From Escherichia phage dhabil, in sequence record MN850621.1: a stretch of 64,000 nt of DNA. One strand, 5' to 3'. The notes below the pieces were generated by a model. The model had not been told where the DNA came from, ran no database searches, and was given only the letters and a program-made list of their open reading frames with translations. The translations under genes were made by a program, and so were the position numbers. This document shows, one piece after another, positions 1 through 19,058 of this stretch; the stretch's first letter is position 1; every line of letters begins with the position of its first letter.

Positions 1-224
1 TCACCTGTAGCCACCAGTCCATCACCAGATTTTTCGATGAATCCTTTCTTAATCAATACACCAATGTTAGAGTTAACTACCGCAGCACTAAATTGTTCAC
101 TCAGGGCTTCGCGGACTTCGCCTGAAGTGATGAAGTTATTCTTGATGATATGTACTAAGATAGAAGCCGTTTTTTCATTCAGGACGTCTTCAGAAGCTTT
201 GATGATATAAGTAATTTTAGACAT
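1..224 (-). CDS. motA: MotA middle-transcription activator, N-terminal ~74 codons; rest of gene lies left of the window
   Basis: ATG at 222-224 with GGAG upstream; translation MSKITYIIKASEDVLNEKTAS...NSNIGVLIKKGFIEKSGDGL matches the T4 MotA N-terminal domain as I recall it. Confidence 0.8.
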   Translation of the reverse strand, partial: MSKITYIIKASEDVLNEKTASILVHIIKNNFITSGEVREALSEQFSAAVVNSNIGVLIKKGFIEKSGDGLVATG

Positions 225-247
225 TTTAATCTCCGATAACCATTTAT

Positions 248-287
248 TTGATAGGTCTATAGTATCATGTTTAAAGCAGAAGTAAAC
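248..287 (-). promoter_or_regulatory. T4-early-type promoter cassette for motA
   Basis: Minus strand GTTTAC (282-287), 17-nt spacer, TACTAT (259-264); contains the 20-mer core TTGATAGGTCTATAGTATCA. Confidence 0.6.
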
Positions 288-328
288 TTTATTTTGAGCT
301 CTTTTCCAAGAGCTCTGGTAAAAATTAC

Positions 329-544
329 TTAGATTGATAGGTCTTTAATCTCGGCGATTAAAGCGGCTTTTCCTTCACGAAGTTTTTCCAGTTCACGACC
401 ATTAGAGCCGCGAACTACTAAGGAATTTATCTCCACTTCCAGCCAATTTAGTTTTTCAACTAGTTCTTTACGTTTAGCATTCATACCAGGTTTAACTTTA
501 CCGAAACGGATGGTAGCGTTTTGGGTATTTTTCATCTTATTCAT
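329..544 (-). CDS. hypothetical protein, 71 aa, basic
   Basis: ATG at 542-544, SD GGAG; sits between motA and gene 52. Confidence 0.5.
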   Translation of the reverse strand: MNKMKNTQNATIRFGKVKPGMNAKRKELVEKLNWLEVEINSLVVRGSNGRELEKLREGKAALIAEIKDLSI

Positions 545-572
545 TTTTGTATCTCCATTTCACTCTGTTGTT

Positions 573-612
573 TTGATAGGTCTATAGTATCATGTTTAAA
601 GCAGATGTAAAT
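573..612 (-). promoter_or_regulatory. T4-early-type promoter cassette
   Basis: Same 20-mer core as 248-267; minus-strand ATTTAC-N17-TACTAT; near-identical 40-bp copy of the element at 248-287. Confidence 0.55.
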
Positions 613-627
613 ACTTTTTTGCACTAA

Positions 628-652
628 ACCAAAAAAGGAACCCGAAGGTTCC
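628..652 (-). terminator. intrinsic terminator, GC stem with UUCG loop plus U-tract
   Basis: Stem GGAACC/GGTTCC at 637-652 with loop cgaa (UUCG on minus), followed on minus strand by TTTTTTGG. Confidence 0.65.
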
Positions 653-757
653 TTACTTTTTAAAGTGTGCTGCTATTAAACCTATAGCTAAGCCCGTCGC
701 CAGGCCTAGGATAACAGCAAAGATACAGAGTAACAAGAACTCGACTCCAAGGCTCAT
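653..757 (-). CDS. small hydrophobic peptide, 34 aa
   Basis: ATG overlaps the gene 52 stop (ATGA); translation MSLGVEFLLLCIFAVILGLATGLAIGLIAAHFKK; below ORF-track size cut-off. Confidence 0.3.
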   Translation of the reverse strand: MSLGVEFLLLCIFAVILGLATGLAIGLIAAHFKK

Positions 758-2133
758 AGAGCCTCCAAATCTTTAACATACTCAGTTACAACATCAGTGG
801 TTTTCCAGTATTGATGCTCTTCTTTCTTAGCCTTGGCTTCCAAAGCCAGTTTCTTAGCTTCATCGGACGTGATATGGAAAATGTTCATTGCTACGAGTTT
901 ATCAGCATATTCACCGTAGACTTTATTACCGGCCAATTCTTCGGTTAAAACCTTACGGGTCTTACCTTGGATAACCACTACACCGTCAATAACATCTTTA
1001 ATGAATGTAGCTTTAGCCAATGCCAGTTTGAAAGCTTCTTCGGTTTCGATGATTTTACCATCAATACGTTTTTGTACAAAGGTCTTACGGACCTCAACGA
1101 AATCACGAATCAGTTCAACTGCATCTTCGTAAACCTTAAGTTTACCTTTCTCATTAATGACGGTCAGGTTTTGCGAACGACGTTCGATTAACCCGAAGTC
1201 CTTCATGATTTTTTCGTGCTTCTTATTTTCTTCAGTAGGCAATTCATATTCTTTACGAATCTTAACCTTGAAGCCGAAACCATTCTCGTCACAGTCGTCA
1301 TCATACGTGATATACCCTTTGTCTTCTAAAGGGTCCAACACCTTAGCCACGTATGTTTCACGGTCATATTTGTACGGGATTTCTGTAATATGCATTTGGG
1401 TTCGAGAGGTGAACTTATACGTTCCACGAATCTCATAACTTCCAGGTTCAATCTCAACAACTTCACCACGGAATTCCGGATAAGCTACCTTAGGCTTGGT
1501 TACGCGTTTTTCTTGAAGAACCTGCAATACAGCTTTCTTAACAGAATCAAAACTATGAGGAAGAATATTAGTTGCATAACCAGTTGCAATACCGGAAATA
1601 CCATTAAGAAGAACAGTAGGAATAATAGGCAGATAAAAAGCTGGTGGCTTATGTTCGACATCCGCATGAACCGGAGCATATTCTGTATCCTTATAAACCT
1701 TTGCGAAATTAGTTCCAATTCGTGCAAAAATATAACGAGAGGCTGCAGCCTTTTGAACTAATCGAGAACCAAAGTTACCTTGGCCATCCAACAGTGGGAA
1801 GTTGTTGTTCCATGTGTTAGCCATCAAAGCCCCTGCTTCCTGAGCAGAACCTTCACCATGGTGATATCCAAGGTCGGCTACACCACCTGCAATAGAAGCT
1901 AGTTTGTGGAATTTTTCTTTATTACCACGAGCCATATCAAGACAACGAGCAACTACAAAACGTTGTACAGGTTTAAAGCCATCAATCATATTTGGAATGG
2001 CGCGGTTTTCGACAGTATACATTGCGTAAGCCAGCGCTTCGTTGTCGATAATGCTTTTTAAGTCACGACGAGTAAAAGCGTCATCGTAAACATCTAAGGA
2101 TTGTTTAAAAAGGGTATCAATTACATCAGCCAT
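754..2133 (-). CDS. 52: DNA topoisomerase II medium subunit (GyrA-like)
   Basis: 459-aa ORF, ATG at 2131-2133; type II topoisomerase A-subunit-like; position downstream of ac/stp as in T4. Confidence 0.9.
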   Translation of the reverse strand: MADVIDTLFKQSLDVYDDAFTRRDLKSIIDNEALAYAMYTVENRAIPNMIDGFKPVQRFVVARCLDMARGNKEKFHKLASIAGGVADLGYHHGEGSAQEAGALMANTWNNNFPLLDGQGNFGSRLVQKAAASRYIFARIGTNFAKVYKDTEYAPVHADVEHKPPAFYLPIIPTVLLNGISGIATGYATNILPHSFDSVKKAVLQVLQEKRVTKPKVAYPEFRGEVVEIEPGSYEIRGTYKFTSRTQMHITEIPYKYDRETYVAKVLDPLEDKGYITYDDDCDENGFGFKVKIRKEYELPTEENKKHEKIMKDFGLIERRSQNLTVINEKGKLKVYEDAVELIRDFVEVRKTFVQKRIDGKIIETEEAFKLALAKATFIKDVIDGVVVIQGKTRKVLTEELAGNKVYGEYADKLVAMNIFHITSDEAKKLALEAKAKKEEHQYWKTTDVVTEYVKDLEAL

Positions 2134-2137
2134 AATT

Positions 2138-2278
2138 TTACCATACTAGTGAATGAATAACCATAATAACATCGGAAATAAAAAGCACAACTTGGATAAG
2201 ACCGAATATTACTCCATAATACAGCGCTACTAATAAAGCAGCAAGGGCTACAGAGTAGCCCAAGATTTTCTTAATCAT
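2138..2278 (-). CDS. small membrane protein, 46 aa
   Basis: ATG at 2276-2278; hydrophobic MIKKILGYSVALAALLVALYYGVIFGLIQVV...; overlaps the preceding gene end by 8 nt. Confidence 0.4.
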   Translation of the reverse strand: MIKKILGYSVALAALLVALYYGVIFGLIQVVLFISDVIMVIHSLVW

Positions 2279-2432
2279 TTTTAATCATCTTAAGTAAACC
2301 GACAAAAGTAGAAAGAACCCAGCCAATAAACAGAAAACTTAAGAATACCGGACCAGGGGTCCATACACCTAAAAAGAAGCAAACTGAACAGACCATAGCC
2401 ATAATAAGTTCAATAAAAACTAGGATAATCAT
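2271..2432 (-). CDS. small membrane protein, 53 aa, at the position of T4 ac
   Basis: ATG at 2430-2432 preceded by AGGAAAAT; two predicted transmembrane segments; between stp and gene 52. Confidence 0.45.
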   Translation of the reverse strand: MIILVFIELIMAMVCSVCFFLGVWTPGPVFLSFLFIGWVLSTFVGLLKMIKND

Positions 2433-2442
2433 ATTTTCCTCA

Positions 2443-2520
2443 TTAGCGTCCGAAGACGCCTTTAGTTTTAAGATTGTTACGATAGAACTGCATCACATGT
2501 TCGTTATGGAAATTACTCAT
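2443..2520 (-). CDS. stp: Stp peptide, 25 aa
   Basis: Translation [25 protein letters not shown] matches T4 Stp as I recall it; ATG overlaps the upstream stop (TAATG). Confidence 0.8.
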
Positions 2521-2969
2521 TAGTAAGCCTGCAGAACGAATTTGAAGTTATCGGCCAACATACGGTTCATTTCTTCCAGTGTCTGGAGGTCTGAACTATG
2601 GTTGCGAGTGAAAGCCATAGCGATTTGACCTTTACCGAAGCCTGTAGTCAGTGGTTTCATTTTAGAAGCCGGCACATAAAGAACTTCATACACAACACCA
2701 TTCACTGCCATAGTGCGAGCTGATTGTGAACGTTTCTTACGAATGTTAGCTACGATACCATCAAGACCTTGAGCTGAACGTTGGTTGCCGACATAAAAGC
2801 GTGCAGCTACGACACGAGAATCTGCTTCACCTTTAACAAAGAAGTAGAAGCCTGGCTGGGCTGAGATTTCTTTAGAAGGCTTACCATTTTGGTATTCGCC
2901 ATTCTTAACATAAGCAACAGTAGTAGCACCAGCAGACAGAACGTTACCGCGAGTCATATAAGTATTCAT
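2520..2969 (-). CDS. ndd: Ndd-like nucleoid disruption protein
   Basis: 149 aa, ATG at 2967-2969; size and position immediately upstream of stp match T4 ndd. Confidence 0.55.
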
Positions 2970-3010
2970 ATCAATTTCCTCAGTAGATTAATGTTTTGTT
3001 ATCCAGTCAA

Positions 3011-3047
3011 CGAGAACCATTATAACATGATTCTCGAGGTTGTAAAC
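3011..3047 (-). promoter_or_regulatory. early promoter with flanking inverted repeat
   Basis: Minus GTTTAC (3042-3047), N17, TATAAT (3019-3024); arms cgagaa/ttctcg flank the -10. Confidence 0.55.
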
Positions 3048-3391
3048 TATTTTTGTAGCTGTTCTAAAATAAATCCGCTAGTATAAAAGGGAGCATTATA
3101 AACCTTGTTCAGTGGGTTCAAAGCCTGTCCGTAAGTATCACGTAGTTCTTTGATAACGTTTTCATAACTCACGTAGTAAGCACTATGATAACCAGGGTCC
3201 ATACTCATACGAAATTTAATGAACCGATAAAAGCCTGTTTCCGGGTCTTGAACGAAAACGAAATCAGCACTCGTCATAATCTTTGAATGTACGCCGGGAA
3301 TCATACTTTGATTGAATGCCACCGATGCATCCTGAAGGCTGAGTTGTTTAAAGAACATTACCTTAGCATTACCAAAAAAGATTTTAGACAT
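3047..3391 (-). CDS. hypothetical protein, 114 aa
   Basis: ATG at 3389-3391; no motif recognised. Confidence 0.45.
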   Translation of the reverse strand: MSKIFFGNAKVMFFKQLSLQDASVAFNQSMIPGVHSKIMTSADFVFVQDPETGFYRFIKFRMSMDPGYHSAYYVSYENVIKELRDTYGQALNPLNKVYNAPFYTSGFILEQLQK

Positions 3392-3405
3392 GATAATTTC
3401 CTCAA

Positions 3406-3651
3406 TTATTCAGGGTCAACTGCGCCATCCCACAGGTCAACTTCTTCTGATGATTCCATCAGTTCATCAACTGTGAAGCACTCAGTATTATTTTCAATAG
3501 CAAAACGCTTTTGATAAAAAGGATAATCCAAACAGTTTTCAGTACGAATAGGCCGCTCGCTATTATCCATTAAAGGAGAAATACGAATCAATTGTTGACC
3601 ATTACCTAAGACAAATTTTTCACCAACTGCGATATCTTTAAAAAGTTTCAT
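3406..3651 (-). CDS. hypothetical protein, 81 aa
   Basis: ORF-track start is TTG at 3693; moved to ATG 3649-3651 with SD GAGGAAAA. Confidence 0.4.
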   Translation of the reverse strand: MKLFKDIAVGEKFVLGNGQQLIRISPLMDNSERPIRTENCLDYPFYQKRFAIENNTECFTVDELMESSEEVDLWDGAVDPE

Positions 3652-3777
3652 AATATTTTCCTCAGAAGTTAAAGAATACACGTACATGGTCAATCATAAA
3701 AACTATTGGGAAAATGCTCAATACAACCAATAACACAAACATGTTCCAAATTGCTTTAAGTAAGTTTTTCATAATCA

Positions 3778-3827
3778 TCTCCATTAGTTGATAGGTCTAT
3801 AATATCATGTCTAATGGAGATGTAAAC
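3778..3827 (-). promoter_or_regulatory. promoter cassette with RBS-pairing stem
   Basis: Minus GTTTAC (3822-3827), N17, TATTAT (3799-3804); 10-bp arms 3778-3787 / 3811-3820, right arm contains the SD GGAG. Confidence 0.6.
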
Positions 3828-4225
3828 ATTGATTGTTATCATTATTACTGGAAATAATATCACTCATATTAAGCGCCAGAACCTACTCAAACCCTGCGCT
3901 CCCAATTTCAAGGTTAGAGCGGTTGTCAAAGATTTTGCACCGACCTTTAACCTGGCTGGATGCGTAGAACTCCGCAGTTTCTTGAACATCAAAAGCATAC
4001 AACCTTGTTTCTAAATCGCGATAACGTGGTTCGCCGTTAAGTTCAAACCAAATCATAATAGTTACTGGGATCATTTTCGGGTTCCTTGTTTGTTGGTGTA
4101 TGAGTACTATAACATGCTAAATCTGAGATGTAAACTGATTTATGCTAATTTCCACAACAATAAACTAAAGCATATACAAATAATTGGAATACAAGTCATC
4201 CAAATAAGGCACCACGTTTTGCTAC

Positions 4226-4491
4226 TCAAAACACCACCTCTTTTATCTCAATCAATCCCCTGTGCAATGCGGTGCGAAGGTCATAAAGGATATCTATACC
4301 GTCAACATTATCCAGTTTACCGTCGATAAGTTTTTGTAAATCTTTTTTTGACGCTATCAAAGGGCGGAGAAATTTACATTCAGAAAGAGATAACTCTGTA
4401 GTAACATCATCACCTTCACCTGATGCATCATACATAGCGGCGACAACCATACCCGTAACTTTGTGTTTAGCGTAATATAATTTGATATCCA
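4226..4491 (-). CDS. hypothetical protein, 88 aa
   Basis: ORF-track start 4552 runs through the promoter; moved to ATG 4489-4491 with SD GAGGAG. Confidence 0.45.
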
Positions 4492-4509
4492 TTTTGTTCT
4501 CCTCATTAG

Positions 4510-4550
4510 TTGATAGGAAGATAGTAACACCATCCATGGCGTATGTAAAC
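4510..4550 (-). promoter_or_regulatory. T4-early-type promoter cassette
   Basis: Minus GTTTAC (4545-4550), N18, TACTAT (4521-4526); TTGATAGG core variant. Confidence 0.5.
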
Positions 4551-4563
4551 ACTTATTTTAAAA

Positions 4564-5040
4564 TTATAAGGCGAGATACCAGCCGTTGTAATTACTCTTA
4601 CGGACTAGCTTTTTGATGGATTCTCTGTCACCAGAGAACTTAGGAGTGAACAGGACGTCGCCTGCCTCATTTACTGAAGTGTCGAATATAATTATACAGT
4701 CTGCAACTTTATGATTCAAGAGCGGTCCCAGGTTTATCCCTGTTCCATAAGGGAAGTCACCCGAGTATCCTGTAGTGCAGGAAATCCACTTAGAATCAGA
4801 TTGGTGGGTCTTGACCTCTACACGTAGTCCGCAGTACATAGGATGGGCTAAAACATCCCAGGCGTAGGTATAAGGGTCGTCATGGTCTTCCAGACCACTG
4901 TTGACATATCCTTTCAACCAATCAGCAACCATGTACTCTGCATACGTTGCAATAACACACCGAGTCAATACTTCTTTCTTATCTTGGGAGGGGTCTTGGC
5001 TTAAGGAATATAATACGGTATCCTTAATCTTGACCTTCAT
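4564..5040 (-). CDS. hypothetical protein; start uncertain
   Basis: In-frame ATGs at 5082 and 5040; 5040 chosen for SD GGTGA and no overlap; region corresponds positionally to T4 denB/ndd.x. Confidence 0.4.
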   Translation of the reverse strand: MKVKIKDTVLYSLSQDPSQDKKEVLTRCVIATYAEYMVADWLKGYVNSGLEDHDDPYTYAWDVLAHPMYCGLRVEVKTHQSDSKWISCTTGYSGDFPYGTGINLGPLLNHKVADCIIIFDTSVNEAGDVLFTPKFSGDRESIKKLVRKSNYNGWYLAL

Positions 5041-5053
5041 TTCACCCGTTAAA

Positions 5054-5353
5054 TCAGATGTCTTCAGGGTAAATGTCGGCATCGCTGCCAATCGGAGTAA
5101 CCCCGGGTTCGTCTTCACCATAAATGCCTCGAATATGAAGTTCACCATAATAAATTCGGTCGTTTGGTTCTAAAATATCGGAATCAATTAAAGGAAATTC
5201 ACCTTCGACCACCTCATCACATTCTAGAAAAGCGTAATGGACATCGCCAGGATGTTTAACGAGCTTAGCACAATAAACAGTACCTGCTCGATGGAACCCA
5301 CGCAAATTAGAAATCTTGATATCACGTTCACCGACATTTAGGTAATTAATCAT
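5054..5353 (-). CDS. hypothetical protein, 99 aa
   Basis: ORF-track start is GTG at 5362; ATG at 5351-5353 chosen. Confidence 0.4.
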   Translation of the reverse strand: MINYLNVGERDIKISNLRGFHRAGTVYCAKLVKHPGDVHYAFLECDEVVEGEFPLIDSDILEPNDRIYYGELHIRGIYGEDEPGVTPIGSDADIYPEDI

Positions 5354-5354
5354 T

Positions 5355-5552
5355 TTACTCACCGAAATAAGAAATACGAACCTCTAAACAATGCGCATAT
5401 GCACCCATCGCATCCAGTTGGGCAATCAGTAACCCTTGTTGACGGATATCAAGAGTTTCAAAAACACCACCTTTAATAAACTCTTCGAGAGCATTAATTT
5501 TCAGGACCAGTTGGTCGTATTCTTCAATTACACGTGCTTGGAAACCTAACAT
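5355..5552 (-). CDS. hypothetical protein, 65 aa
   Basis: ATG at 5550-5552 with SD GAGGAA; immediately downstream of rIIB. Confidence 0.45.
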   Translation of the reverse strand: MLGFQARVIEEYDQLVLKINALEEFIKGGVFETLDIRQQGLLIAQLDAMGAYAHCLEVRISYFGE

Positions 5553-5590
5553 AATTCCTCATTAGGAGGCCGAAGCCTCCATTTATTAAT

Positions 5591-6559
5591 TTAGTATTTG
5601 TATTCGTTTGCGAACTGTTCAGTGACGTCTTCCAGAACTTCATAATAACATACACGCATTTTAGCATCACCGTAATCGACTGGGATACTAACAACATCAC
5701 GTGGGTTAACTTTACATGAAACTACTTTACAGTTAGAGTTACCAAAATGACCGATATAGCTACGAGAGCAAACATGCAGACCCGTTGAACAAGTTACTTC
5801 GTCGTCATCATTTACACGCGAACGAGGCATTTTAACTGGCTTACCTGGCGAGTTATCAAACGTACCAGTACGGCAGTCGGTGTAATCGGAGTTAACAACT
5901 TTCCATGCGATAAAGTGGCCGTCTTCAGTGATTTTGATATCGTTCGCGACCAGGAAGTCGAACAGACGCTGTACGGCTTTTTCGCTTGGGTTTTCTAACA
6001 GATTCTCAAGGAACGGCAGGTAGAATTCAAAATCTTCGCCATTTTCCATTGAGGTGATAATACGGTCAATCAACCCTGAACGTAATTCAATACCTTGATA
6101 AACCAGACGTCCACCTTCAATACGAACGTTACCTTTAACGAAAGCCTTGACAGCTTCTTTAATGGAAATCAGTTTAATCGCATCATCAAAACGGGATTCT
6201 TTAAGAGCCTGTACGATGGCATCAAAATGTTTGTTCTTATTAGTAGTGTTCCATACTGTACGACCTTCAGTGATGGATACGAATTTAGAACTGGCGTTCC
6301 AGATAATTTCTGGACGAGAACCGCCGATAGTAATATCCACCGGAACAAATCGAGGTTCGTTAGGAACCGTTACTTTGATATTTCCGGTAATAACCACTTG
6401 AGAACGTTTAGCTTCTTCAGCATTTTTCAGGACTTTACGGATGCTATCAACCGAGACACTGTACCGGTCGGCCAACTCATTCTGGGTATAATTACCAGAA
6501 GTATATAACTTAACGATGTCGACTTGTTCGGATTTAGTCAAACACTTAATATTGTACAT
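5591..6559 (-). CDS. rIIB: rIIB protector from prophage-induced early lysis
   Basis: 322 aa; N-terminus MYNIKCLTKSEQVDIVKLYTSGNYTQ matches T4 rIIB as recalled; adjacent to rIIA. Confidence 0.9.
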   Translation of the reverse strand: MYNIKCLTKSEQVDIVKLYTSGNYTQNELADRYSVSVDSIRKVLKNAEEAKRSQVVITGNIKVTVPNEPRFVPVDITIGGSRPEIIWNASSKFVSITEGRTVWNTTNKNKHFDAIVQALKESRFDDAIKLISIKEAVKAFVKGNVRIEGGRLVYQGIELRSGLIDRIITSMENGEDFEFYLPFLENLLENPSEKAVQRLFDFLVANDIKITEDGHFIAWKVVNSDYTDCRTGTFDNSPGKPVKMPRSRVNDDDEVTCSTGLHVCSRSYIGHFGNSNCKVVSCKVNPRDVVSIPVDYGDAKMRVCYYEVLEDVTEQFANEYKY

Positions 6560-6573
6560 AATATTTCCTTAGA

Positions 6574-8784
6574 TTAAGCCGCTTCCACGGCTTTCATGAA
6601 TTTAACGATTTGAGCTACAGAAGCCTCGGTAATGGATGTTCCACGACGATACATGTAATCCGAAACTAAATGGTAATCGGATTCAAACTGTACAGTCATT
6701 TTATCATTGTTACTTGAAGCATTATTGGTTAGCGTATTGAACGTCGTGTTACAGATTTTCTTGATAACAGAAAGTTTGTCATCAGTGATATACCCATGGA
6801 AATTCATATAACGGAATATATCATAGAAATTGCTCAGACGAGTATATGCTTCAGACACCGGCTTATCACTGAAATATTTAGTCATAAAACCAAGCTCAGG
6901 GAACTTAGCAATAATTTCAAGATAATACCTTGCACGGGTATTACTACCAATATAATCATCAATATCTACAGCATCTAGTGCTTCGGCATAAGCTTCTAAC
7001 GTGGTTTCCATCAAGCATTCACATTGGCCTAACTTTTTAATCTTTTTGGCAATCTGAGGGCGAATGATATGGAATTCGGTAGCACCAATCAAATTAGCCA
7101 TACGGCACATGGTAGTGGTGTTGATGTCAAAGATACCATAAGCTTCATCCATTCCCATGATATCAGAACGACTACCAAACAATACGTACCCTGTAATTTC
7201 TTCTGCTTCTGCAGCAGTTAAGTATAAGGTCTCTTGTTGCCAACGCCCGTCTTTAATGAACCAACGATAAGCACTTGGTGTTTTAGGACGAGGTTCGGAT
7301 GAACGAACAGTAACCGGAATCCACGGCTTAACAATTTTATTCAGTTCAGAGACTTTATAAAAATGAATTGTGTCGCCTTTAAAAAGTTCTTTAACCTTTT
7401 CAAGTTGTTGCATTTGCAACATTGAATTCGGGTCAACAAAAATAAGGTCTGTTCTGTATTTAGGAATATTGTGCTCTTTAACAATTTTCTTGGCCGAAGC
7501 GCTGTTGTCCATTGCTAAGGCCCAAAGTCCTCGAACTAATGGCACACGACCCTTTTCATCATCATAAACAATATGGATTTCTTTATTATTAATACCTAAT
7601 AGGCCACTAAGTCCTGCTACCGAAGAAGTATTACCACTCGGCTTAATTCGTTTCAAACGTGGGTCCATACAAACTTCGTAAACAACACCCAAATTAATAA
7701 GGTCGTTTTGAAGTGTATAACGTTGGTACAATTTCTCGTATGTTAATTTTTCAGTTGTGAACTCTTTAGTAACGCCTCTTTTAGAAAGATAGTCGCGAGC
7801 ACTATAACCTAGGTTAGAAAGGTCACGATAAACATGACGTGGATTATCAGATTCAACCCATTCCTGTGTATCGTTTTTAAAGACCAATGCATCCAAGGCT
7901 TCGATACGAGTTGCGATATTTTCCATTGTGCGTTTATCAAGAGACAGCACTTCACGAGATGGAGCGATATCTAACGAACCCATAGGGAACTTAATATAAA
8001 CTACATCATGGCGAGTACGCATCCATGTGCCTTTAATATAAGCCGAATCCAATGGATAAACAATACCACCATAAACGGCATAAAGCCCTGAACGTTCAAA
8101 ATCACCGTAGCCGGTATCGGTTACAGCATAGTAGTCATCAAATTCAGGGAAATAATCAACTTCGGCCCCATCAACATCACCAAGCCCAATGAACGGGCGC
8201 ATGATATATCGAACTTCAGTTTCAAACTTACGGAAATCTTCTTCGTCGACAGGAACCGTGATTTCGATACCTGTTTTGTCGCCTGGTTGCATTGGTTCAA
8301 CGAATGTAGGTTTAATCTGCGGCCCGTCACCATCCATATAAGCTACATAACCGCGAACTTCACCATTATGCCAGGATGTAATATTAAACGTTTCGGTATA
8401 ACTGAACGGGGATTTAGAACCAAGGCCAAATCCACCAATGAAATCGTTAGAAGCAGTTTTAGATGATGCGAAATAAGAGTTATACAAACCGGTTTCGTTT
8501 TCATCACCACGAATCTGGAAATCGCTCATACCTGGACCGAAATCACGACACACAAAGCGTGGGTCGAGCTTACCAGGAACCTGTACTTTCCAACGTTCTT
8601 TATTACCATTCAGAATATGAGCATCGATCATGTTGGTAATTAGTTCACGAACTACAGCACGCACCTTATTACTATAAAGGTCTGATGAAAGAATTTTAAA
8701 GACCTTAGGTGAGGCCTGGATAGTAAATCCTGTGGACTTAGCACCATTACCAATGATTTGTTCTTTTTCGGTTTCAATAATCAT
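6574..8784 (-). CDS. rIIA: rIIA protector from prophage-induced early lysis (GHKL-type ATPase fold)
   Basis: 736 aa; N-terminus MIIETEKEQIIGNGAKS...VVRELITNMIDAH matches T4 rIIA as recalled. Confidence 0.9.
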   Translation of the reverse strand: MIIETEKEQIIGNGAKSTGFTIQASPKVFKILSSDLYSNKVRAVVRELITNMIDAHILNGNKERWKVQVPGKLDPRFVCRDFGPGMSDFQIRGDENETGLYNSYFASSKTASNDFIGGFGLGSKSPFSYTETFNITSWHNGEVRGYVAYMDGDGPQIKPTFVEPMQPGDKTGIEITVPVDEEDFRKFETEVRYIMRPFIGLGDVDGAEVDYFPEFDDYYAVTDTGYGDFERSGLYAVYGGIVYPLDSAYIKGTWMRTRHDVVYIKFPMGSLDIAPSREVLSLDKRTMENIATRIEALDALVFKNDTQEWVESDNPRHVYRDLSNLGYSARDYLSKRGVTKEFTTEKLTYEKLYQRYTLQNDLINLGVVYEVCMDPRLKRIKPSGNTSSVAGLSGLLGINNKEIHIVYDDEKGRVPLVRGLWALAMDNSASAKKIVKEHNIPKYRTDLIFVDPNSMLQMQQLEKVKELFKGDTIHFYKVSELNKIVKPWIPVTVRSSEPRPKTPSAYRWFIKDGRWQQETLYLTAAEAEEITGYVLFGSRSDIMGMDEAYGIFDINTTTMCRMANLIGATEFHIIRPQIAKKIKKLGQCECLMETTLEAYAEALDAVDIDDYIGSNTRARYYLEIIAKFPELGFMTKYFSDKPVSEAYTRLSNFYDIFRYMNFHGYITDDKLSVIKKICNTTFNTLTNNASSNNDKMTVQFESDYHLVSDYMYRRGTSITEASVAQIVKFMKAVEAA

Positions 8785-8791
8785 ATTTTTC

Positions 8792-8995
8792 TCAATTCAG
8801 GTTACGTTTAAAAATATCTGCTACTTCAAGGAGCTCTTCCTTAGTAGCGATGTCGTTGAGTATTTTATACCGTATTTCCTTAAAGCGTTCTTTAAAATCT
8901 TCAGCTGCATTGATATCAAAAAATCTCTGGATTAGCCGGAATTCTTTATGGACAGCTTTATCGAACAAATCAATGTTGACTTTAAAGTTTGTCAT
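8792..8995 (-). CDS. hypothetical protein, 67 aa
   Basis: ATG at 8993-8995; position of T4 rIIA.1. Confidence 0.45.
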   Translation of the reverse strand: MTNFKVNIDLFDKAVHKEFRLIQRFFDINAAEDFKERFKEIRYKILNDIATKEELLEVADIFKRNLN

Positions 8996-9305
8996 TTTTA
9001 ACTACCTCATGTTGAACATATTCTCTGGTAGAACCTAGTTCAGCCAGAATTCTTCTCATAGAACCCATTGTACTTTTGTGCTCTCTGTGGCGATACAATA
9101 TCTCTAGAACCTTTTCCTGGACAACGGGAGAGAGCGCCTGGTTATCTTTAATCTTTAAGGCAATAGATTTTACAGCCTTAAGGTATTCTAGTCCCTTACC
9201 GCTTGTAATCACTACTCCTTCATCTTTACAGTTACGAATAGCGGTTTCCATAAAGGATAAAGCCAAGTTGTCAGTGTTCACTATACTATTATCTTGCATA
9301 ATCAT
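8982..9305 (-). CDS. hypothetical protein, 107 aa
   Basis: ATG at 9303-9305; own promoter upstream. Confidence 0.45.
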   Translation of the reverse strand: MIMQDNSIVNTDNLALSFMETAIRNCKDEGVVITSGKGLEYLKAVKSIALKIKDNQALSPVVQEKVLEILYRHREHKSTMGSMRRILAELGSTREYVQHEVVKNDKL

Positions 9306-9324
9306 ATTCTCACCTCTTAGAGAA

Positions 9325-9353
9325 TCATATCACACTTTTAATCTGTTGTAAAC
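9325..9353 (-). promoter_or_regulatory. sigma70-like early promoter
   Basis: Minus GTTTAC (9348-9353), N17, TGaTATGAT extended -10 (9325-9330). Confidence 0.5.
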
Positions 9354-9375
9354 CCCGAAAAGGGCCCGTAGGCCC
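9352..9375 (-). terminator. intrinsic terminator
   Basis: Stem GGGCC/GGCCC 9362-9375 followed on minus strand by TTTTCGGGG. Confidence 0.5.
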
Positions 9376-9575
9376 TTAATTATTCAATTTTGTAGACTTG
9401 ACCTCGAACTTGATAAAATTCGCCTTCCCAGGTTTCTACCATAATGGTCACATACTCTGCGAACAAAGGTCTCTTCTCGGCCCAGAGGTATCCAAATTCA
9501 CCGGTGGCTAGCGTTATCCAGTACTTTCTCATAAAGTCTCCTAATTGTATGGCACTCATGTACCATACATATTTA

Positions 9576-11393
9576 TTACGACATCCAGGCCTTACGGAGT
9601 TGAGGGTCGTTCCCGAGGAGCATTTCGAACTGTTCTTTCCAATCTTCAGGCAATTGAACTACATCAAATTTAGGGTCTTGAATCATTCGACGGTATTCAG
9701 CTTTCTCAAGAGAACCTAAACCTTTAATATATCGAATAGAATGTTTCGGTAGAGAGTCCTTGGCTTTGGTATAACTAGGAACATCATAAAACCATTCTTG
9801 TTCTTTACCGACCTGGGCAATAATCACCGGAGTTTTACAGAATCTCACTCGACCTTGTTCGAACAATTCAGGCCATTGACTAAAGAAGGCTAGCAATGAT
9901 GGATAAATCGAACCAGTACCATCCACATCAGCATCGGTCATAATGGCGATATTACGATAGTTGGTTTTATCTGCAGGTTCGCCAATAACCAATCCAGTGA
10001 TTGCACAGATATCAAATAGTTCCTTATTCTTCATGATATCTGTTGCTGTCATTCCCCAGGTATTCATAACCTTACCACGTAATGGATAACCACCTTGAAG
10101 GTCTTTATTACGGACTTCAATGAAAGGACCCATAGCGGAATCACCTTCAGTCAAGAACAGGGTTGTATCGGCATCTTTACCGTATAAGTTAGCTTTAATA
10201 TGCTTATGGACCTTGGCTTTAGAAGCTTTCTTAGCAGCTTTAGTTTCAGCAGCCTTTTCAGCTGCTAATTTACGTGCTAAAGCAGCTTCGACGATAGGCA
10301 TAATAAGCCCTTCGTTTTTAAGAATATACTGTGAGATTTTCTTTGCATCAATTTGAATATGATTACGAATTTCACCGAATGGTGACGTCAAACGCTCTTT
10401 AGTCTGGGAATCAAAACGCATATTACTCATATCACGAATGAACATTACCATCGTAAGGCATTCTTTAACACGAGCCTTTGTTACTTCAATTCCACGATAT
10501 TTCTTTTTAATACCAGGCAGAAGGTGCTCACAAATATCATCGAATACACATTCAACGTGGTGACCACCATTCTTAGTGTGGATATTGTTTACATAAGTCA
10601 GTTGACGGAAACCATCTGGAGATGTAGTAAATGCCATTGAGACATTATCGGTTTCTTGAATTACTACATCTTTACCAAATTGATTAGCATACTTTTTAAA
10701 GTTACCATCTACTTTTTTACCATTAAAAGTAAATTGGATACTAGGATAAATTACAGCTAGGGTTTTAAGACGATCTAAAGTAATATCCAGATAAATTTGG
10801 GTCAAACTATTTTCTTCGAAATGGTTAAAGTCTGGAGTGAATATAACCGAAGTGCCTTTATCTTTGGATTTCTTAGTAGTCCAACCTTTGTTTTCCATTC
10901 CGTTAGAACAGTTAACAGTAATCTCATTCTCACCATCAGAGGTGATGCCTGTGAACAAAACGGAGAAGATATTAGTTAAACTACTACCGACACCATTCAT
11001 GCCACCTGTCTTACGCTCTGCGTCATCTCCAAAGTTACCACCAGCCTTTGGAATAGTCCATGCAGCTACAGGACCTGGAATTTGTTCACCGTTTTGGTCA
11101 GTAACCATTGCTTGTGGAATACCACGGCCATTATCAGAAACTGAAACCTGATTATTCTTAATTCGGACATCAATTTTGTTTGCGAATTTAAAATTAGTAC
11201 GAATAGCTTCATCGACAGAGTTATCAATGATTTCATCAATTAATTTAACTAGCCCTGGAACATAGTTCACCTGTGTAAAATTACCGAACAGGAATCGACC
11301 ATGGGCTTCATTAGCACTAGAGCCAATATACATCCCACTACGTTTTTTGATATGTTCAATGTCGGACAGTACTTTAATTTCATTCTTAATCAT
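9576..11393 (-). CDS. 39: DNA topoisomerase II large subunit (GyrB-like ATPase), continuous 39+60 ORF
   Basis: 605 aa, ATG at 11391-11393; GHKL ATPase plus TOPRIM region; length equals the sum of T4 gp39 and gp60, with no interruption. Confidence 0.9.
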   Translation of the reverse strand: MIKNEIKVLSDIEHIKKRSGMYIGSSANEAHGRFLFGNFTQVNYVPGLVKLIDEIIDNSVDEAIRTNFKFANKIDVRIKNNQVSVSDNGRGIPQAMVTDQNGEQIPGPVAAWTIPKAGGNFGDDAERKTGGMNGVGSSLTNIFSVLFTGITSDGENEITVNCSNGMENKGWTTKKSKDKGTSVIFTPDFNHFEENSLTQIYLDITLDRLKTLAVIYPSIQFTFNGKKVDGNFKKYANQFGKDVVIQETDNVSMAFTTSPDGFRQLTYVNNIHTKNGGHHVECVFDDICEHLLPGIKKKYRGIEVTKARVKECLTMVMFIRDMSNMRFDSQTKERLTSPFGEIRNHIQIDAKKISQYILKNEGLIMPIVEAALARKLAAEKAAETKAAKKASKAKVHKHIKANLYGKDADTTLFLTEGDSAMGPFIEVRNKDLQGGYPLRGKVMNTWGMTATDIMKNKELFDICAITGLVIGEPADKTNYRNIAIMTDADVDGTGSIYPSLLAFFSQWPELFEQGRVRFCKTPVIIAQVGKEQEWFYDVPSYTKAKDSLPKHSIRYIKGLGSLEKAEYRRMIQDPKFDVVQLPEDWKEQFEMLLGNDPQLRKAWMS

Positions 11394-11417
11394 GTTATTT
11401 CCTCATGTAGTAGGAGA

Positions 11418-11442
11418 ATATTATCCCATTTCACTTAAAGCA
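11418..11442 (-). promoter_or_regulatory. MotA-dependent middle promoter for gene 39
   Basis: Minus ttTATGCTTTA (MotA box TGCTTTA, plus 11436-11442), 12 bp, TAATAT (11418-11423), then SD GAGGAAA and ATG. Confidence 0.55.
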
Positions 11443-11459
11443 TAAAAGGGCCGAAGCCC
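11441..11459 (-). terminator. intrinsic terminator, UUCG loop
   Basis: Stem GGGC/GCCC 11448-11459 with loop cgaa, followed on minus strand by TTTTAT. Confidence 0.5.
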
Positions 11460-11720
11460 TTAATCAAATCGGATGGTCGACTTTTTAAAGAATAACCCAG
11501 AACAAACTGTTCCTTCAACCCTTTTACCTGTCGGACCTACAGCAATAAAGCCTGTACGTTGGAAATCATCTTCAGAACAGCCAAATAGGTTGTATCCTGT
11601 GATTTGGATTTGTTTGTAGCCATTTGCATCCAATACACGGGCGGCATTATCGGCATCAGTACAACCAACCAACGAAACTGCTAGTACCAGAGCTGCAATA
11701 GAACGATTAACGTATTTCAT
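11460..11720 (-). CDS. putative lipoprotein, 86 aa
   Basis: Signal peptide with lipobox LVGC near the N-terminus. Confidence 0.5.
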   Translation of the reverse strand: MKYVNRSIAALVLAVSLVGCTDADNAARVLDANGYKQIQITGYNLFGCSEDDFQRTGFIAVGPTGKRVEGTVCSGLFFKKSTIRFD

Positions 11721-11904
11721 AATTTCTCACTTAGTCAGCAGGTCGTAAAAACCGCCATTAACATGTTTAGGGGCCGAGACTAACCGAACAGCCAGCCGAT
11801 GGCAATCAGGACAAACATCGTTATCTCTTTCAGAGATTTTCTTGATTTTTTCGTATTCTTTTGCACAGTCTTCAGATTGGCATTTGTAATCATAAAGTGG
11901 CATG

Positions 11905-12342
11905 TTATTCCTTAAAGTGTGCTTTCAGCATCTGGTAAACGGTCCAGGCTTCAGAGTTATTAGAGATAGTGATTTTAGTCAAAGGGAAATCACTCGGTTC
12001 ATATGGGGCTGCATCTTCAGACTGGTCTTCGTCTTCAGAGAAACCATCTTCGGCCCATTCGTCTTCACTGTCAACTACAACCATTTCCGTAAAGAATTTA
12101 CGCTCGCTTGGATATAAAACCATATCAATGTTATCGCCATAAGCCAAGTCTGCATTAAATACATATCCAGCCGATACTCTAACAGGGCAAAAACCTTCAG
12201 AATTGACAATAATATCTGCTATAGAAGAATTATCAGGATTTCTAATATTATGGGAATTCAGCTTACGGAATTCAGCTTCTGCCGCGTCATCTTTAAAATA
12301 GTACCATTTACCTTTTTCAAATTCGAGTTCTTGATTAAGCAT
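11905..12342 (-). CDS. hypothetical acidic protein, 145 aa
   Basis: ORF-track start 12435 overlaps the upstream gene; moved to ATG 12340-12342 with SD GGAAGGAAA. Confidence 0.4.
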   Translation of the reverse strand: MLNQELEFEKGKWYYFKDDAAEAEFRKLNSHNIRNPDNSSIADIIVNSEGFCPVRVSAGYVFNADLAYGDNIDMVLYPSERKFFTEMVVVDSEDEWAEDGFSEDEDQSEDAAPYEPSDFPLTKITISNNSEAWTVYQMLKAHFKE

Positions 12343-12553
12343 TGTAAGTTTCCTTCCAGAAGTCGGTGCCTTCAGCAGTGATTTCACGGAACACTGCATA
12401 GATAGGGTTTTTATCGCCTTGATTTTCGTATACATAAACCGACGATAAATGAGAAAACGTATCAGAATGTTCCTTTTGAACCACGATTAAATCAGGGTTG
12501 AACAGAACGTCTTCAAATTCTTCACGAGTCGAGTTCACAGTAACTTTAGCCAT
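12335..12553 (-). CDS. hypothetical protein, 72 aa
   Basis: ATG at 12551-12553. Confidence 0.45.
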   Translation of the reverse strand: MAKVTVNSTREEFEDVLFNPDLIVVQKEHSDTFSHLSSVYVYENQGDKNPIYAVFREITAEGTDFWKETYNA

Positions 12554-12572
12554 TTTATTTTCCTCTCATTTG

Positions 12573-12613
12573 TTGATAAGGTAATAGTATCACTACCCTA
12601 CCGTATTGTATAC
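12573..12613 (-). promoter_or_regulatory. promoter cassette variant with degenerate -35
   Basis: Core TTGATAAGGTAATAGTATCA with TACTAT -10; -35 is GTATAC at N18. Confidence 0.35.
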
Positions 12614-12626
12614 TGTTTTTTTAAAC

Positions 12627-13190
12627 TTATGCACGATGAATATTAGCATACTCGACAATAAAGCTTTCAGGAACCACCTTAAAAGTTCCAAGGAACACGA
12701 TGTTATAAAGCTTAACGCCTTCTTCAACCCACTGGTCTGTGATGTAACCGGACATGCTGGTGGTTTCATAAGTACCGAAAAGTTCGTCATCGTATTCAAA
12801 CGGCTTAGGGGAAACGAAAAAGACACCTTGACCTAATTCCCATTTAAAATCAACACCCACATGAGACTGGTCGATAGTTTCAACGTCTTGAGCTACTACG
12901 CCACGGATATCATTGCTTTCACATACATACCCATCATGGGATTCAACTTCTTCAACCACTGGGGTATGAACAAGTTCAGGAACTATTGGACGCGCTTTCC
13001 AGCCCTTAGAAATCAAAGTGACATAGCGTTCTTTAACATAACCTACAGTTGAAGAAACGAAACCACTGGAACGAAATGCCTGGACTTTAACAAGACCACG
13101 AGAGAAATTGAATCCAATAATAATACATTTTTTACCAGCAACTTTAGATTTAGAATCTTCGGAAACCGATACGATATCACCAATTTTCAT
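12627..13190 (-). CDS. hypothetical protein, 187 aa; paralog of 13268-13816
   Basis: C-terminal motif GYITDQWVEEGVKLYNIVFLGTFKVVP shared with the next gene (WVTDQWIEDGVELLNVVHAGDFSVVP). Confidence 0.5.
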   Translation of the reverse strand: MKIGDIVSVSEDSKSKVAGKKCIIIGFNFSRGLVKVQAFRSSGFVSSTVGYVKERYVTLISKGWKARPIVPELVHTPVVEEVESHDGYVCESNDIRGVVAQDVETIDQSHVGVDFKWELGQGVFFVSPKPFEYDDELFGTYETTSMSGYITDQWVEEGVKLYNIVFLGTFKVVPESFIVEYANIHRA

Positions 13191-13230
13191 AATATTACCT
13201 TTTGTTTAGGAATTAGGTTTATTCTCCATA

Positions 13231-13265
13231 AGAGCCATTATAACATGGCTCTCGATAAAGTAAAC
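13231..13265 (-). promoter_or_regulatory. early promoter with flanking inverted repeat
   Basis: Minus GTTTAC (13260-13265), N17, TATAAT (13237-13242); arms agagccat/atggctct. Confidence 0.55.
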
Positions 13266-13267
13266 TA

Positions 13268-13816
13268 TTAATTCAATACATTAACCACTGCACTACGAGG
13301 TACTACGCTAAAATCACCAGCATGTACAACGTTCAGCAGCTCAACACCATCTTCAATCCACTGGTCTGTTACCCAACCACAGATAGGATTATCAAAAGGA
13401 CGACGGATAGCCACAGCAGCACACAACAGGTCGGTAGGGCCTTGTTCTTCAACTTCTTGGAACAGGATGAACTCATCTTCATAAACCAGGTTTTTCTCTA
13501 TTTTGTTATTATCTAACCGGCGACCGTGGATGACGTAAGATTTGTCAAACCACTCACTTTTGGCGAATTCTTCAACAATAAATTCGCCTTCGCCAAAAAC
13601 ATAAGTCAGAGTTTTATAACCGGAAATCAGGGCCTTAGTTTTAAATTCAGGTTCAACCAGTTTGTAGGTTTTGCCGATTTCGATAGTCTGAGTAGTCATA
13701 GTGGGTTCCTTAATTTCCAATGGTTTAATAGGGGCTACATAAGTGCTTAAAACATCAAAATCAATCAATTTGGCCGCCGGGTTCGGTGTGTATTTGGGAT
13801 TATAATTAAATTTCAT
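13268..13816 (-). CDS. hypothetical protein, 182 aa; paralog of 12627-13190
   Basis: ATG at 13814-13816; shared C-terminal domain with the downstream gene. Confidence 0.5.
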   Translation of the reverse strand: MKFNYNPKYTPNPAAKLIDFDVLSTYVAPIKPLEIKEPTMTTQTIEIGKTYKLVEPEFKTKALISGYKTLTYVFGEGEFIVEEFAKSEWFDKSYVIHGRRLDNNKIEKNLVYEDEFILFQEVEEQGPTDLLCAAVAIRRPFDNPICGWVTDQWIEDGVELLNVVHAGDFSVVPRSAVVNVLN

Positions 13817-13818
13817 AA

Positions 13819-14322
13819 TTATCTCATTTCAATAAAATCTACGAGTTCAGCATGGGATTTGCGGAACATTACTTGGCGGTCACCAATGACTACCTCATCT
13901 TCAGGTATTTCGTAAACAGCAAGATAGAATCCTTTAGAAGATAATTCTTCGCGCTCTTCACGAGTGAACCAGCGCATCATATCATACTCGCTGGCAAAAG
14001 CAAAATGGTAGAGGTTAACAAACCAACCCGGAATATAATCGTCACAGTCTTCATAATCAGGTCGTTTCCACTTAGTTCTAATGGCTTTATTAGAATTTTC
14101 TACCAACAACTTATCTTGACTTGGTAGTGGGATATTTTTATTAATGCTATGATGATGTCTAAAAATAGGTCTGTCCAAACCTACTTCCAATAACCAGCCT
14201 TCACTCCATGAGTCTGTTGTACTTCTATACGGGGTCATTTGAGTACAGAGGTCTCGTCGTATTGTGATAGCGTTTCCATCATCTAAGATACTGAACGATG
14301 ACTCAACTCGATAAATTTTCAT
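13819..14322 (-). CDS. hypothetical protein, 167 aa
   Basis: ATG at 14320-14322 with SD GAGGAG. Confidence 0.45.
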   Translation of the reverse strand: MKIYRVESSFSILDDGNAITIRRDLCTQMTPYRSTTDSWSEGWLLEVGLDRPIFRHHHSINKNIPLPSQDKLLVENSNKAIRTKWKRPDYEDCDDYIPGWFVNLYHFAFASEYDMMRWFTREEREELSSKGFYLAVYEIPEDEVVIGDRQVMFRKSHAELVDFIEMR

Positions 14323-14329
14323 TTTGTTC

Positions 14330-14378
14330 TCCTCATGTTGATAGGGTAGATAATATCATGTCATGAGGAGAAGTAAAC
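14330..14378 (-). promoter_or_regulatory. promoter cassette with RBS-pairing stem
   Basis: Minus GTTTAC (14373-14378), N17, TATTAT; arms tcctcatg / catgagga. Confidence 0.55.
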
Positions 14379-14382
14379 ACTT

Positions 14383-15057
14383 TTATCGATTTTTTACACT
14401 TAATGGGTCTGGATTCTCAGGAACATCTTCTAGGTTTAAAGCATATCGTTGGGCATATTTCAGCATCAAGATATCCTTAGCACAGTCATGGATAGAGTCA
14501 TGAGCAACAAAACCATTCAATGTTCCGTTAGGCAGAGGGCACATGCTCAATCCTCGCGTCAGTGAATACGCTTCAATAGCTGTACGGATATCACGTTGGT
14601 TCCAGAATTTAACCGGTTCCAACTTGGTGGTATCGATTTCGTTCTCAGGAACACCTTCAGAACGATAAGCATCGCGAATAAGGTCCACTAAGATTGGAAA
14701 GTCAAAGGACATTCCGCGACACCACATCTGGGATTTCCATTGGTCCACTTCGTTTTTACGACAGTATTCCAGGAAATTACCAAGGCCGATAGAAGTAGTC
14801 ACATCAATTTCGGACGGAGCCAGGTTTTTACGTGCTTCAGGTCCTTGTTCTTTCCACCACTGCAATGTGCTTTTAGAGAACAGACGTTTATCACGTTGAG
14901 AAGCCAAATCGAATTTAATACGAAGGCCGCGTTGAGTAAGCTCTTCAAAAGATTCTACTACCTCTGGATTAGGGTCATAAGCAATTACGGCGAGGTCAAT
15001 AACTGCTGCATTTTGGGTAGTGGCAAAGGTTTCAAAGTCAATAATTATATCTTTCAT
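14383..15057 (-). CDS. dexA: exonuclease A (DnaQ-like 3'-5' exonuclease)
   Basis: 224 aa; N-terminal IIIDFETF acidic exonuclease motif; size and position as T4 dexA. Confidence 0.75.
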   Translation of the reverse strand: MKDIIIDFETFATTQNAAVIDLAVIAYDPNPEVVESFEELTQRGLRIKFDLASQRDKRLFSKSTLQWWKEQGPEARKNLAPSEIDVTTSIGLGNFLEYCRKNEVDQWKSQMWCRGMSFDFPILVDLIRDAYRSEGVPENEIDTTKLEPVKFWNQRDIRTAIEAYSLTRGLSMCPLPNGTLNGFVAHDSIHDCAKDILMLKYAQRYALNLEDVPENPDPLSVKNR

Positions 15058-15344
15058 TTAACGTACCTCATAAGGTCTCGGATTTGGCCAACAGTATAGT
15101 CTTCAATATAAACCGAAGAGATATTGTCATCCATCAGTTTTTGCACTGCAATAAAATCGCTTTCAATCTCTTTAAGTGAATGCAAGACCTTATGAGCCTT
15201 GCCACGGATATTTGTATCGTCTGGGTCGACCTTAATAATATATTCCGTCTCGAATTTCAACTTATAAAATTGGTCTTTAGTTACTTTAATCATATTTTCC
15301 TCAAACATAATAGGCATCAGTACGAGCACGGGTAATACTAACAT
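15054..15344 (-). CDS. hypothetical protein, 96 aa
   Basis: ATG at 15342-15344; between dexA and dda. Confidence 0.45.
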   Translation of the reverse strand: MLVLPVLVLMPIMFEENMIKVTKDQFYKLKFETEYIIKVDPDDTNIRGKAHKVLHSLKEIESDFIAVQKLMDDNISSVYIEDYTVGQIRDLMRYVK

Positions 15345-16925: not shown

Positions 16926-16929
16926 CACG

Positions 16930-17679: not shown

Positions 17680-17708
17680 GATATTTTTCTCATCTTACGG
17701 ACGATTAG

Positions 17709-17748
17709 TTGATAGGTCTATAGTATCATGTTGCTTAATAAAGTAAAC
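17709..17748 (-). promoter_or_regulatory. T4-early-type promoter cassette
   Basis: Exact core TTGATAGGTCTATAGTATCA; minus GTTTAC (17743-17748), N17, TACTAT. Confidence 0.6.
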
Positions 17749-17817
17749 ACTTTTTTGCTTTAAATTTTCGACGGTATAATGAATCAAGGACTTTGCCTTT
17801 CAATTAAACCGGGTGGT

Positions 17818-18432: not shown

Positions 18433-18446
18433 ATTATTCTCCTCAG

Positions 18447-19056: not shown

Positions 19057-19058
19057 AT

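Follow-up and report, generated by a model that had tools for sequence, protein, structure and literature searches.

Repeated modules with a predicted terminator, early promoter and leader flank small-ORF cassettes in a T4-like Dhakavirus genome and probably provide homology for their exchange

The closest described counterparts of the elements reported here are the PeSLs of phages RB49 and phi1, conserved segments of ~100 bp in which an early promoter and a stem-loop are combined with an AT-rich region and a Shine-Dalgarno/start sequence (PMC2839356). Arbiol et al. (2010) showed that PeSLs possess both promoter and terminator activity and detected mini-circles that arise when flanking PeSLs cross over (PMC2839356). 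In a later study, Comeau et al. (2014) extended PeSLs to the T4/PST and KVP40/nt-1 pairs and gave TTTACW...TAYWAT as the consensus for the T-even pair (PMC4122927). JS98 is mentioned in these papers in passing only, for the g43 locus. The early promoters of T4 display a UP/-35/TGn/-10 architecture that includes UP elements (PMC2988021).

The stretch of DNA analyzed here, referred to as the window, comprises 64,000 nucleotides of Escherichia phage dhabil (MN850621.1). It derives from a T4-like Dhakavirus genome (JS98 group; Straboviridae, Tevenvirinae): in megablast searches, positions 1-8000 displayed 98.5% identity to Escherichia phage CLB_P2, and positions 52500-59500 displayed 98.9% identity to phage dhaeg. 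The T4 gene order is kept, with almost every gene encoded on the minus strand; the modules described below are therefore read as the reverse complement. Module A (545-655), at the gp52/motA locus (locus A), and module B (55280-55389), between nrdC.11 and nrdC.10 (locus B), contain a sigma-70-like promoter, a stable stem-loop, an AT-rich region and a Shine-Dalgarno/start sequence. They adjoin small, functionally uncharacterized ORFs of variable regions and flank insertions, deletions and replacements that distinguish close relatives; small-ORF indels or replacements with junctions inside the element were found at both loci and between the Tequatrovirus G29 and T4. Both PeSL classes, 'stem-loop upstream of -35' and 'stem-loop overlapping -10', occur in the window. 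Judged from these features, the repeated modules of 80-120 bases correspond to the PeSLs of T4-like phages, so that a published concept is rediscovered and no new mechanism is revealed. The published PeSL stems read GN-loop-CN or AGNA-loop-TCNT, whereas the stems described here, in Dhakavirus, are GGAACC or GGACCC with a UUCG loop.

Other systems share some of these properties. T4 displays the same UP/-35/TGn/-10 promoter and the same succession of terminator, UP element, promoter and UTR between motA.1 and motA, but has a single module with another hairpin (GGGAGAGCC...), another spacer and no ORF between the two genes. Intrinsic terminators with a C(UUCG)G tetraloop were reportedly described for T4 intercistronic regions by Tuerk et al. 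in PNAS in 1988. The hairpins of the window resemble them in having a short G+C stem, a C-G pair closing the UUCG loop and a U tract thereafter, with nothing functionally distinct evident, but are fused to a promoter at a fixed distance of 19-20 nt. Lambdoid morons and integron cassettes likewise bring a single ORF, together with its promoter and terminator, to intergenic sites that tolerate additions. However, moron flanks are not thought to mediate insertion, and integrons need an integrase and attC sites, whereas here the homology seems to come from a repeated regulatory sequence, with no evident integrase. We consider it probable that this cassette of terminator, early promoter and UTR doubles as homology for the gain, loss and swapping of gene cassettes, and hold the regulatory assignment with higher confidence than the role in recombination.

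Locus A is arranged in the order gp52, a motA.1-like ORF, module A, a small ORF (ORF71), a stem-loop with a promoter copy, and motA. The 5' end of motA (1-225, minus strand, cut by the window start), whose product activates middle transcription, was assigned from the annotation of CLB_P2, JS98 and JS10. Read on the minus strand from 655 to 542, module A begins at a stop codon and continues through a hairpin followed by U6, a UP-like region, a promoter and a 5'UTR to the ATG of ORF71. The putative terminator A (631-655, minus strand) has GGAACC stem arms at 647-652 and 637-642, a UUCG loop at 643-646 and U6 at 631-636, and directly adjoins the stop codon (653-655) of a motA.1-like membrane ORF of 34 aa. 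Its hairpin (637-652) has an RNA folding energy of -15.9 kcal/mol (z = -3.5), it is among the sites listed by a terminator scan, and Mosigvirus G2285 and MM02 carry a 'terminator' annotation at the orthologous site. At 635-654, the terminator stands between A6 and a T-rich run and is listed by the scan on both strands; it has the shape of a bidirectional terminator, though the genes nearby are all on the minus strand.

A linker with an A-rich UP-like region, GGTTTAGTGCAAAAAAGTA (612-630, minus strand), separates terminator A from the -35 element, upstream of which the AT-rich sequence GCAAAAAAG is found. The candidate early promoter A (584-611, minus strand), detected by pattern scan, combines a -35 TTTACA (606-611) with a -10 TACTAT (584-589) across a 16-nt spacer that ends in TGA, with TGn at 590-592; its +1 probably lies near 577. 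This promoter fits the PST/T4 PeSL consensus TTTACW...TAYWAT (PMC4122927) and is orthologous to the region upstream of T4 motA. It is followed by the conserved initial transcribed region AGACCTATCAAA and a 5'UTR, termed 'A' (together 545-583, minus strand), which lead ORF71. The Shine-Dalgarno GGAG of module A is at 553-556; in both modules an ATG follows GGAG 8-9 nt further on, at 542-544 in module A and at 55277-55279 in module B. 5'UTR 'A' also precedes motA in Dhakavirus PSD9 and two different ORFs in IME08, and a variant of it precedes nrdC.10 in module B. On the basis of consensus and orthology, module A is predicted to constitute an intrinsic terminator, an early promoter and a translation-initiation region.

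Promoter calls rest on the T4-type pattern and its context, since generic scans of positions 1-20000 gave yields only weakly above those of shuffled sequence (75 promoter-like sites for sigma-70 vs 58.6 in shuffles, and 25 terminator-like sites vs 14.3). An Rfam scan of the whole window returned no match; thus no curated RNA family explains the modules.

ORF71 (329-544, minus strand), the cargo of locus A, encodes a 71-aa protein of unknown function (phrog_6200) and lies between two promoter copies. The second copy of the promoter core (247-286, minus strand; -35 at 281-286, -10 at 259-264) is predicted to drive motA and is preceded by a stem-loop, GAGCUCUU-GGAA-AAGAGCUC (296-315, minus strand), which is without a U tract and has an RNA folding energy of -12.8 kcal/mol (z = -3.6). 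The first-pass annotation had described the cores at 248-287 and 573-612 as near-identical 40-mers. They indeed match at 38 of 40 positions, and shifting both by one base to the left (247-286 and 572-611) raises the match to 39 of 40, the non-consensus spacer included.

Locus B is arranged as nrdC.11, a 74-aa ORF, module B and nrdC.10. The predicted terminator B (55365-55389, minus strand) has GGACCC stem arms at 55381-55386 and 55371-55376, a UUCG loop at 55377-55380 and U6 at 55365-55370. Its hairpin (55371-55386) has an RNA folding energy of -20.9 kcal/mol (z = -4.6), and it differs from terminator A by three mismatches, two of which form one compensatory pair. The rest of module B (55280-55364, minus strand) comprises a linker/UP region (55345-55364), a promoter (55317-55344) with -35 TTTACC, 16-nt spacing and -10 TATTAT, and a 5'UTR with GGAGA at 55285-55289. 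The module leads an nrdC.10 homologue (54299-55279), for which it is predicted to serve as promoter. It looks mosaic, since its spacer and -10 resemble those of another promoter subfamily (families D7 and D12). The 74-aa ORF (55386-55610, minus strand; phrog_8921, function unknown) is the variable cargo between nrdC.11 and terminator B, and its stop codon (55386-55388) abuts the terminator stem. The mechanically called start of this ORF is a TTG, and the ORF is unannotated in phage dhaeg.

In a third module (20922-20987, minus strand), a terminator of the same sequence as A (20963-20987) precedes an early promoter (20922-50); mapping of coordinates to JS98 places this module between the homologues of soc and mrh.2. 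Its hairpin (20969-20984) has an RNA folding energy of -11.4 kcal/mol. The recurrence of the terminator stem at 20969-20984, already remarked in the first-pass annotation, extends to an exact 25-mer, AAAAAAGGAACCCGAAGGTTCCTTA, at 631-655 and 20963-20987, for which no occurrence is expected by chance. This identity could be partly convergent, because the A6/T6 flanks and the C(UUCG)G loop are constrained and only ~5 stem positions are free. The energies of the four hairpins at 637-652, 55371-55386, 20969-20984 and 296-315 range from -11 to -21 kcal/mol (z = -2.8 to -4.6). Stems of 6-8 bp, U6 tracts and abutting stop codons, as in intrinsic terminators, are found among them. The C(UUCG)G tetraloop followed by a U tract is a known habit of T4 intercistronic regions, and six such hairpins were noted on the minus strand of the window (637-652, 11446-11461, 20969-20984, 25395-25410, 55371-55386 and about 58860-58880); a hairpin on the plus strand, at 5565-5580, reads CGAA.

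The segment 573-652 had been reported to recur almost identically at 55307-55386. The repeat is real and well beyond chance expectation, but its identity was overstated: the two segments agree in 66 of 82 columns (80.5%), and the full modules (545-655 vs 55282-55389) agree in 88 of 113 (78%). Likewise, the hairpin GGAACC-cgaa-GGTTCC ascribed to both sites is present at A, but reads GGACCC-cgaa-GGGTCC at B, a compensatory A:T to C:G change in keeping with selection on the hairpin. The tract given as common to the two sites, CTTTTTTGCACTAAACC, is identical in modules A and B. This 17-mer linker has two matches in the entire window, even with two mismatches allowed, where 0.01 are expected, and a 14-nt block of the 5'UTR, TCTCCRTTTCACTC, is found in the window only at these two modules. 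Among the 210 pairwise local alignments of the 21 early-promoter modules, the A-B pair scored highest (63; next-best pair 50, median 17.5).

Part of the similarity is nevertheless family consensus, as the core GTTTAC ... TGnTAnnAT AGACCTATCAA recurs ~20 times in the window. It could therefore be proposed that the copies are alike solely through the T4-type promoter and terminator consensus, with no common descent and no part in recombination. The ~20 window promoters that share GTTTAC...TGnTAnnAT-AGACCTATCAA, the same C(UUCG)G loop with U6 in several window terminators and the extended consensus regions of T4 early promoters (PMC2988021) are all in keeping with this proposal. However, it does not account for the linker and UTR block restricted to A and B, for the rank of the A-B pair, for the identity of the 247/572 pair through an unconstrained spacer, or for the indel junctions that fall inside the repeats in related phages. 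For the A/B and 247/572 pairs, convergence is largely refuted, and as a general explanation we regard it as very unlikely. With a top-scoring pair and two unique blocks, the outcome of a similarity confined to the consensus between unrelated flanks was not observed. Modules A and B are diverged paralogues of one cassette.

Recent gene conversion between A and B was considered and rejected, as orthologues are 95-97% identical vs about 80% for the paralogues; there is no sign of recent exchange between these distant loci. If A recombined with B, about 55 kb that include the replication genes gp43 and gp41 would be lost, presumably with lethal effect, so that such recombination cannot be shown from surviving genomes.

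Comparison with related phages at the synteny breakpoints identified loci A and B as hot spots of insertion, deletion and replacement. At locus A, ORF71 is absent in Dhakavirus PSD9 and E33, in Mosigvirus G2285 and in T4, all of which have no ORF at this position and one module directly before motA. Window positions 1-294 and 545-1100 both align to PSD9 and overlap there on 75 nt; the two phages thus differ by a 325-bp insertion/deletion whose ends lie inside the duplicated promoter/UTR. In IME281 and JS10, positions 332-539, approximately the whole body of ORF71, are swapped for an unrelated 75-aa ORF (phrog_10955 in place of phrog_6200) while both flanks are kept. IME08 has a tandem pair of cassettes with the same 5'UTR leading each of them, and its motA is preceded by a third, degenerate promoter. 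Mosigvirus MM02 has an ORF71 homologue at locus A, again between two copies of the promoter core. Within Dhakavirus, and likewise within Mosigvirus, variants specific to the genus are common to the two flanking promoter copies, suggesting recombination between the copies. The gp52/motA locus therefore holds zero, one (with two alternative cargos) or two small-ORF cassettes across three genera. The cargo ORFs found between the repeats, at locus B as well as here, fall into different PHROG families or have no PHROG assignment. Two annotation points emerged for IME08: its second cassette (L009 883-1300), before motA, contains an unannotated 73-aa ORF at about 957-1178, and the annotated motA CDS (250-957) appears to start too far upstream, because an ORF with the conserved MSKITYI start spans 250-882.

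The cargo protein of IME281 and JS10 is 98.7% identical in more than 130 records, which are mostly named as Escherichia, Shigella or Yersinia phages. In the Tequatrovirus G29, the one record whose locus was checked, this cargo occupies the same gp52/motA locus; compared to T4, G29 has a 321-nt insertion between 23-nt direct repeats in the promoter/UTR region. Sliding-window comparison of IME281 with G29 revealed ~400 nt of mostly 97-100% identity, which starts shortly after promoter 1, spans the ORF, the stem-loop and promoter 2 and reaches the motA ATG, with a dip to 83-88% over the stem-loop and second promoter. The flanking gp52 and motA are about 55-80% identical. In G29, the motA promoter has a Dhakavirus-type core, and a T4-type promoter stands upstream of the inserted ORF. 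At the sequence level, this pattern bears the signature of a recent inter-genus transfer of a promoter-bounded cassette.

The sharp edges of the near-identical inter-genus cassette might also be expected if the hairpin or promoter core were the site of a phage recombinase or nuclease that moves ORF cassettes in an integron-like manner, a possibility raised by Arbiol et al., who likened PeSL cassettes to integrons (PMC2839356). The junctions, however, vary in position within the module, falling in the promoter core, the UTR, the Shine-Dalgarno/ATG region or the terminator, which argues against a fixed attC/attI-like site, and the hairpin itself differs between genera (e.g. GGGAGAGCC in T4 vs GGAACC). 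We therefore regard a dedicated site-specific system as extremely improbable. A transposon- or MITE-like element was rejected, as it is direct repeats of the promoter module that border the inserted segments; the sole inverted repeats are the terminator stems.

At locus B, similarity to IME08 and VR5 breaks at terminator B (window 55382/55391), and the segment 55383-55588 is missing in IME08, VR5 and JS98. IME341 has an extra 84-aa ORF between duplicated 22 nt of promoter, and EcWhh-1, JS98 and JS10 have a different 76-aa ORF between duplicated promoter segments (54 nt in JS98). In E33, the same two-piece match to the module spans 455 nt, a statement that concerns the match only.

For a survey of indels, the complete window was compared to JS98 and Esco_phi_B-01 by chained BLAST, and events of at least 60 nt were retained. 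A boundary in a promoter module was found in 6 of 28 distinct indel or replacement events, where 1.95 are expected under uniform placement (P about 0.01), the 21 promoter modules covering 4% of the window. The enrichment is modest, and selection for whole-gene indels in scarce intergenic space could produce some of it; we have not leaned on this test because it is confounded by selection for intergenic breakpoints. Five segments of 125-230 nt that are absent from JS98 and/or Esco_phi_B-01 (21268-21392, 36514-36722, 41744-41947, 45372-45602 and 57625-57807) have junction overlaps of 2-10 nt and no recognized early-promoter module at their ends; these are small indels made by some other route.

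The same survey bears on the proposal that short-homology or illegitimate indels arise anywhere, that only changes of whole small genes survive, and that the modules are passive landmarks which do not promote recombination. Indeed, 22 of the 28 events touch no recognized module, their junction overlaps are often 2-28 nt, and modules that make up 4% of the window probably make up much of its intergenic space. Set against this are the lengths of the overlaps at the two loci, 75 nt of repeated module at locus A and 22-54 nt at locus B, together with a pattern of presence and absence bounded by the same repeats in three genera and the genus-specific variants common to the two copies of one genome. 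Furthermore, recombination between PeSLs was shown experimentally for RB49 and phi1 (PMC2839356). Taken as the whole explanation, passive landmarks seem unlikely to us, and repeat-mediated exchange is best viewed as one route among several, as Comeau et al. likewise concluded (PMC4122927).

The proposal of a repeated regulatory cassette that also serves in recombination leads to the following model. The C(UUCG)G hairpin with its U6 tract would end transcription of the upstream gene, a strong sigma-70 early promoter of UP/-35/TGn/-10 type would restart it, and the short 5'UTR with its GGAG Shine-Dalgarno would be supplied to the next gene; we infer these promoter and terminator activities from homology and consensus. 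Because 40-110 nt of nearly the same sequence are repeated in direct orientation, the homologous recombination machinery of the phage could cross over between module copies. A crossover between neighboring copies would delete the small ORF between them, while the reverse reaction, or recombination with a co-infecting phage, would insert or swap an ORF that carries its own promoter. At locus A, the cores at 247-286 and 572-611 would act as the two arms flanking the cargo ORF71. To the anatomy, the paralogy, the breakpoints inside repeats and the near-identical inter-genus cassette, all of which are observed, we add by inference a crossover or mini-circle mechanism. The earlier suggestion that the modules are mobile or recombinogenic rather than independently evolved is supported by the breakpoints in relatives, which fall inside the repeated promoter, with the qualification that the modules are recombination substrates flanking cassettes rather than autonomous mobile elements.

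The terminator-promoter-UTR unit stands before at least four unrelated ORFs. It is possible, if rather doubtful, that the gp52/motA site is a conserved cross-genus landing pad and that this unit serves as a portable adaptor, or that pairing between the promoter spacer and the Shine-Dalgarno region insulates the cassettes. Under the landing-pad reading, single-ORF cassettes could be exchanged among Tequatrovirus, Mosigvirus and Dhakavirus at high frequency. Neither PeSL paper (PMC2839356; PMC4122927) states the landing-pad or the translational-insulation idea in this form. With the present analysis, the PeSL picture comes to include the JS98/Dhakavirus group, on which phage therapy work draws, and one locus with zero, one or two cassettes, one of them nearly identical across genera, provides a clean natural example. 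The pattern shows how T4-like phages can gain or lose small accessory genes without disturbing neighboring transcription; for genome engineering, the modules mark sites that are likely to tolerate insertions and at which expression signals are already in place.

Pairing between a promoter spacer and its own downstream region was observed for several other minus-strand promoters of the window, at 3019-3046, 3799-3826, 13237-13264, 14350-14377, 45976-46004, 53916-53943 and 62747-62774. In several of these the complementary downstream region is the Shine-Dalgarno site (e.g. CTCCAGTAG with CTACTGGAG). The cognate spacer duplexes reach energies of -11 to -19 kcal/mol; in comparison with all other UTRs, six of them take the first of 21 ranks (permutation P < 5e-5). 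Such promoters match the PeSL subclass 'stem-loop overlapping the -10'. Formation of the spacer hairpin would be possible in read-through transcripts only; there it would mask the ribosome-binding site and could in this way insulate cassettes by allowing translation only from their own promoter. As a feature of modules A and B, spacer-UTR pairing was rejected, being weak in both (-4.3 and -8.9 kcal/mol, ranks 14 and 12 of 21).

A further observation concerns the Shine-Dalgarno regions of module B, GGAGAATATAA (55279-55289, minus strand), and of motA, GGAGATTAAAA (226-238, minus strand). Each agrees with the strong RegB cleavage consensus GGAGRAYARAA (PMC3014915) at 10 of 11 positions, and a regB homologue is expected near 62 kb of the window by synteny with JS98.
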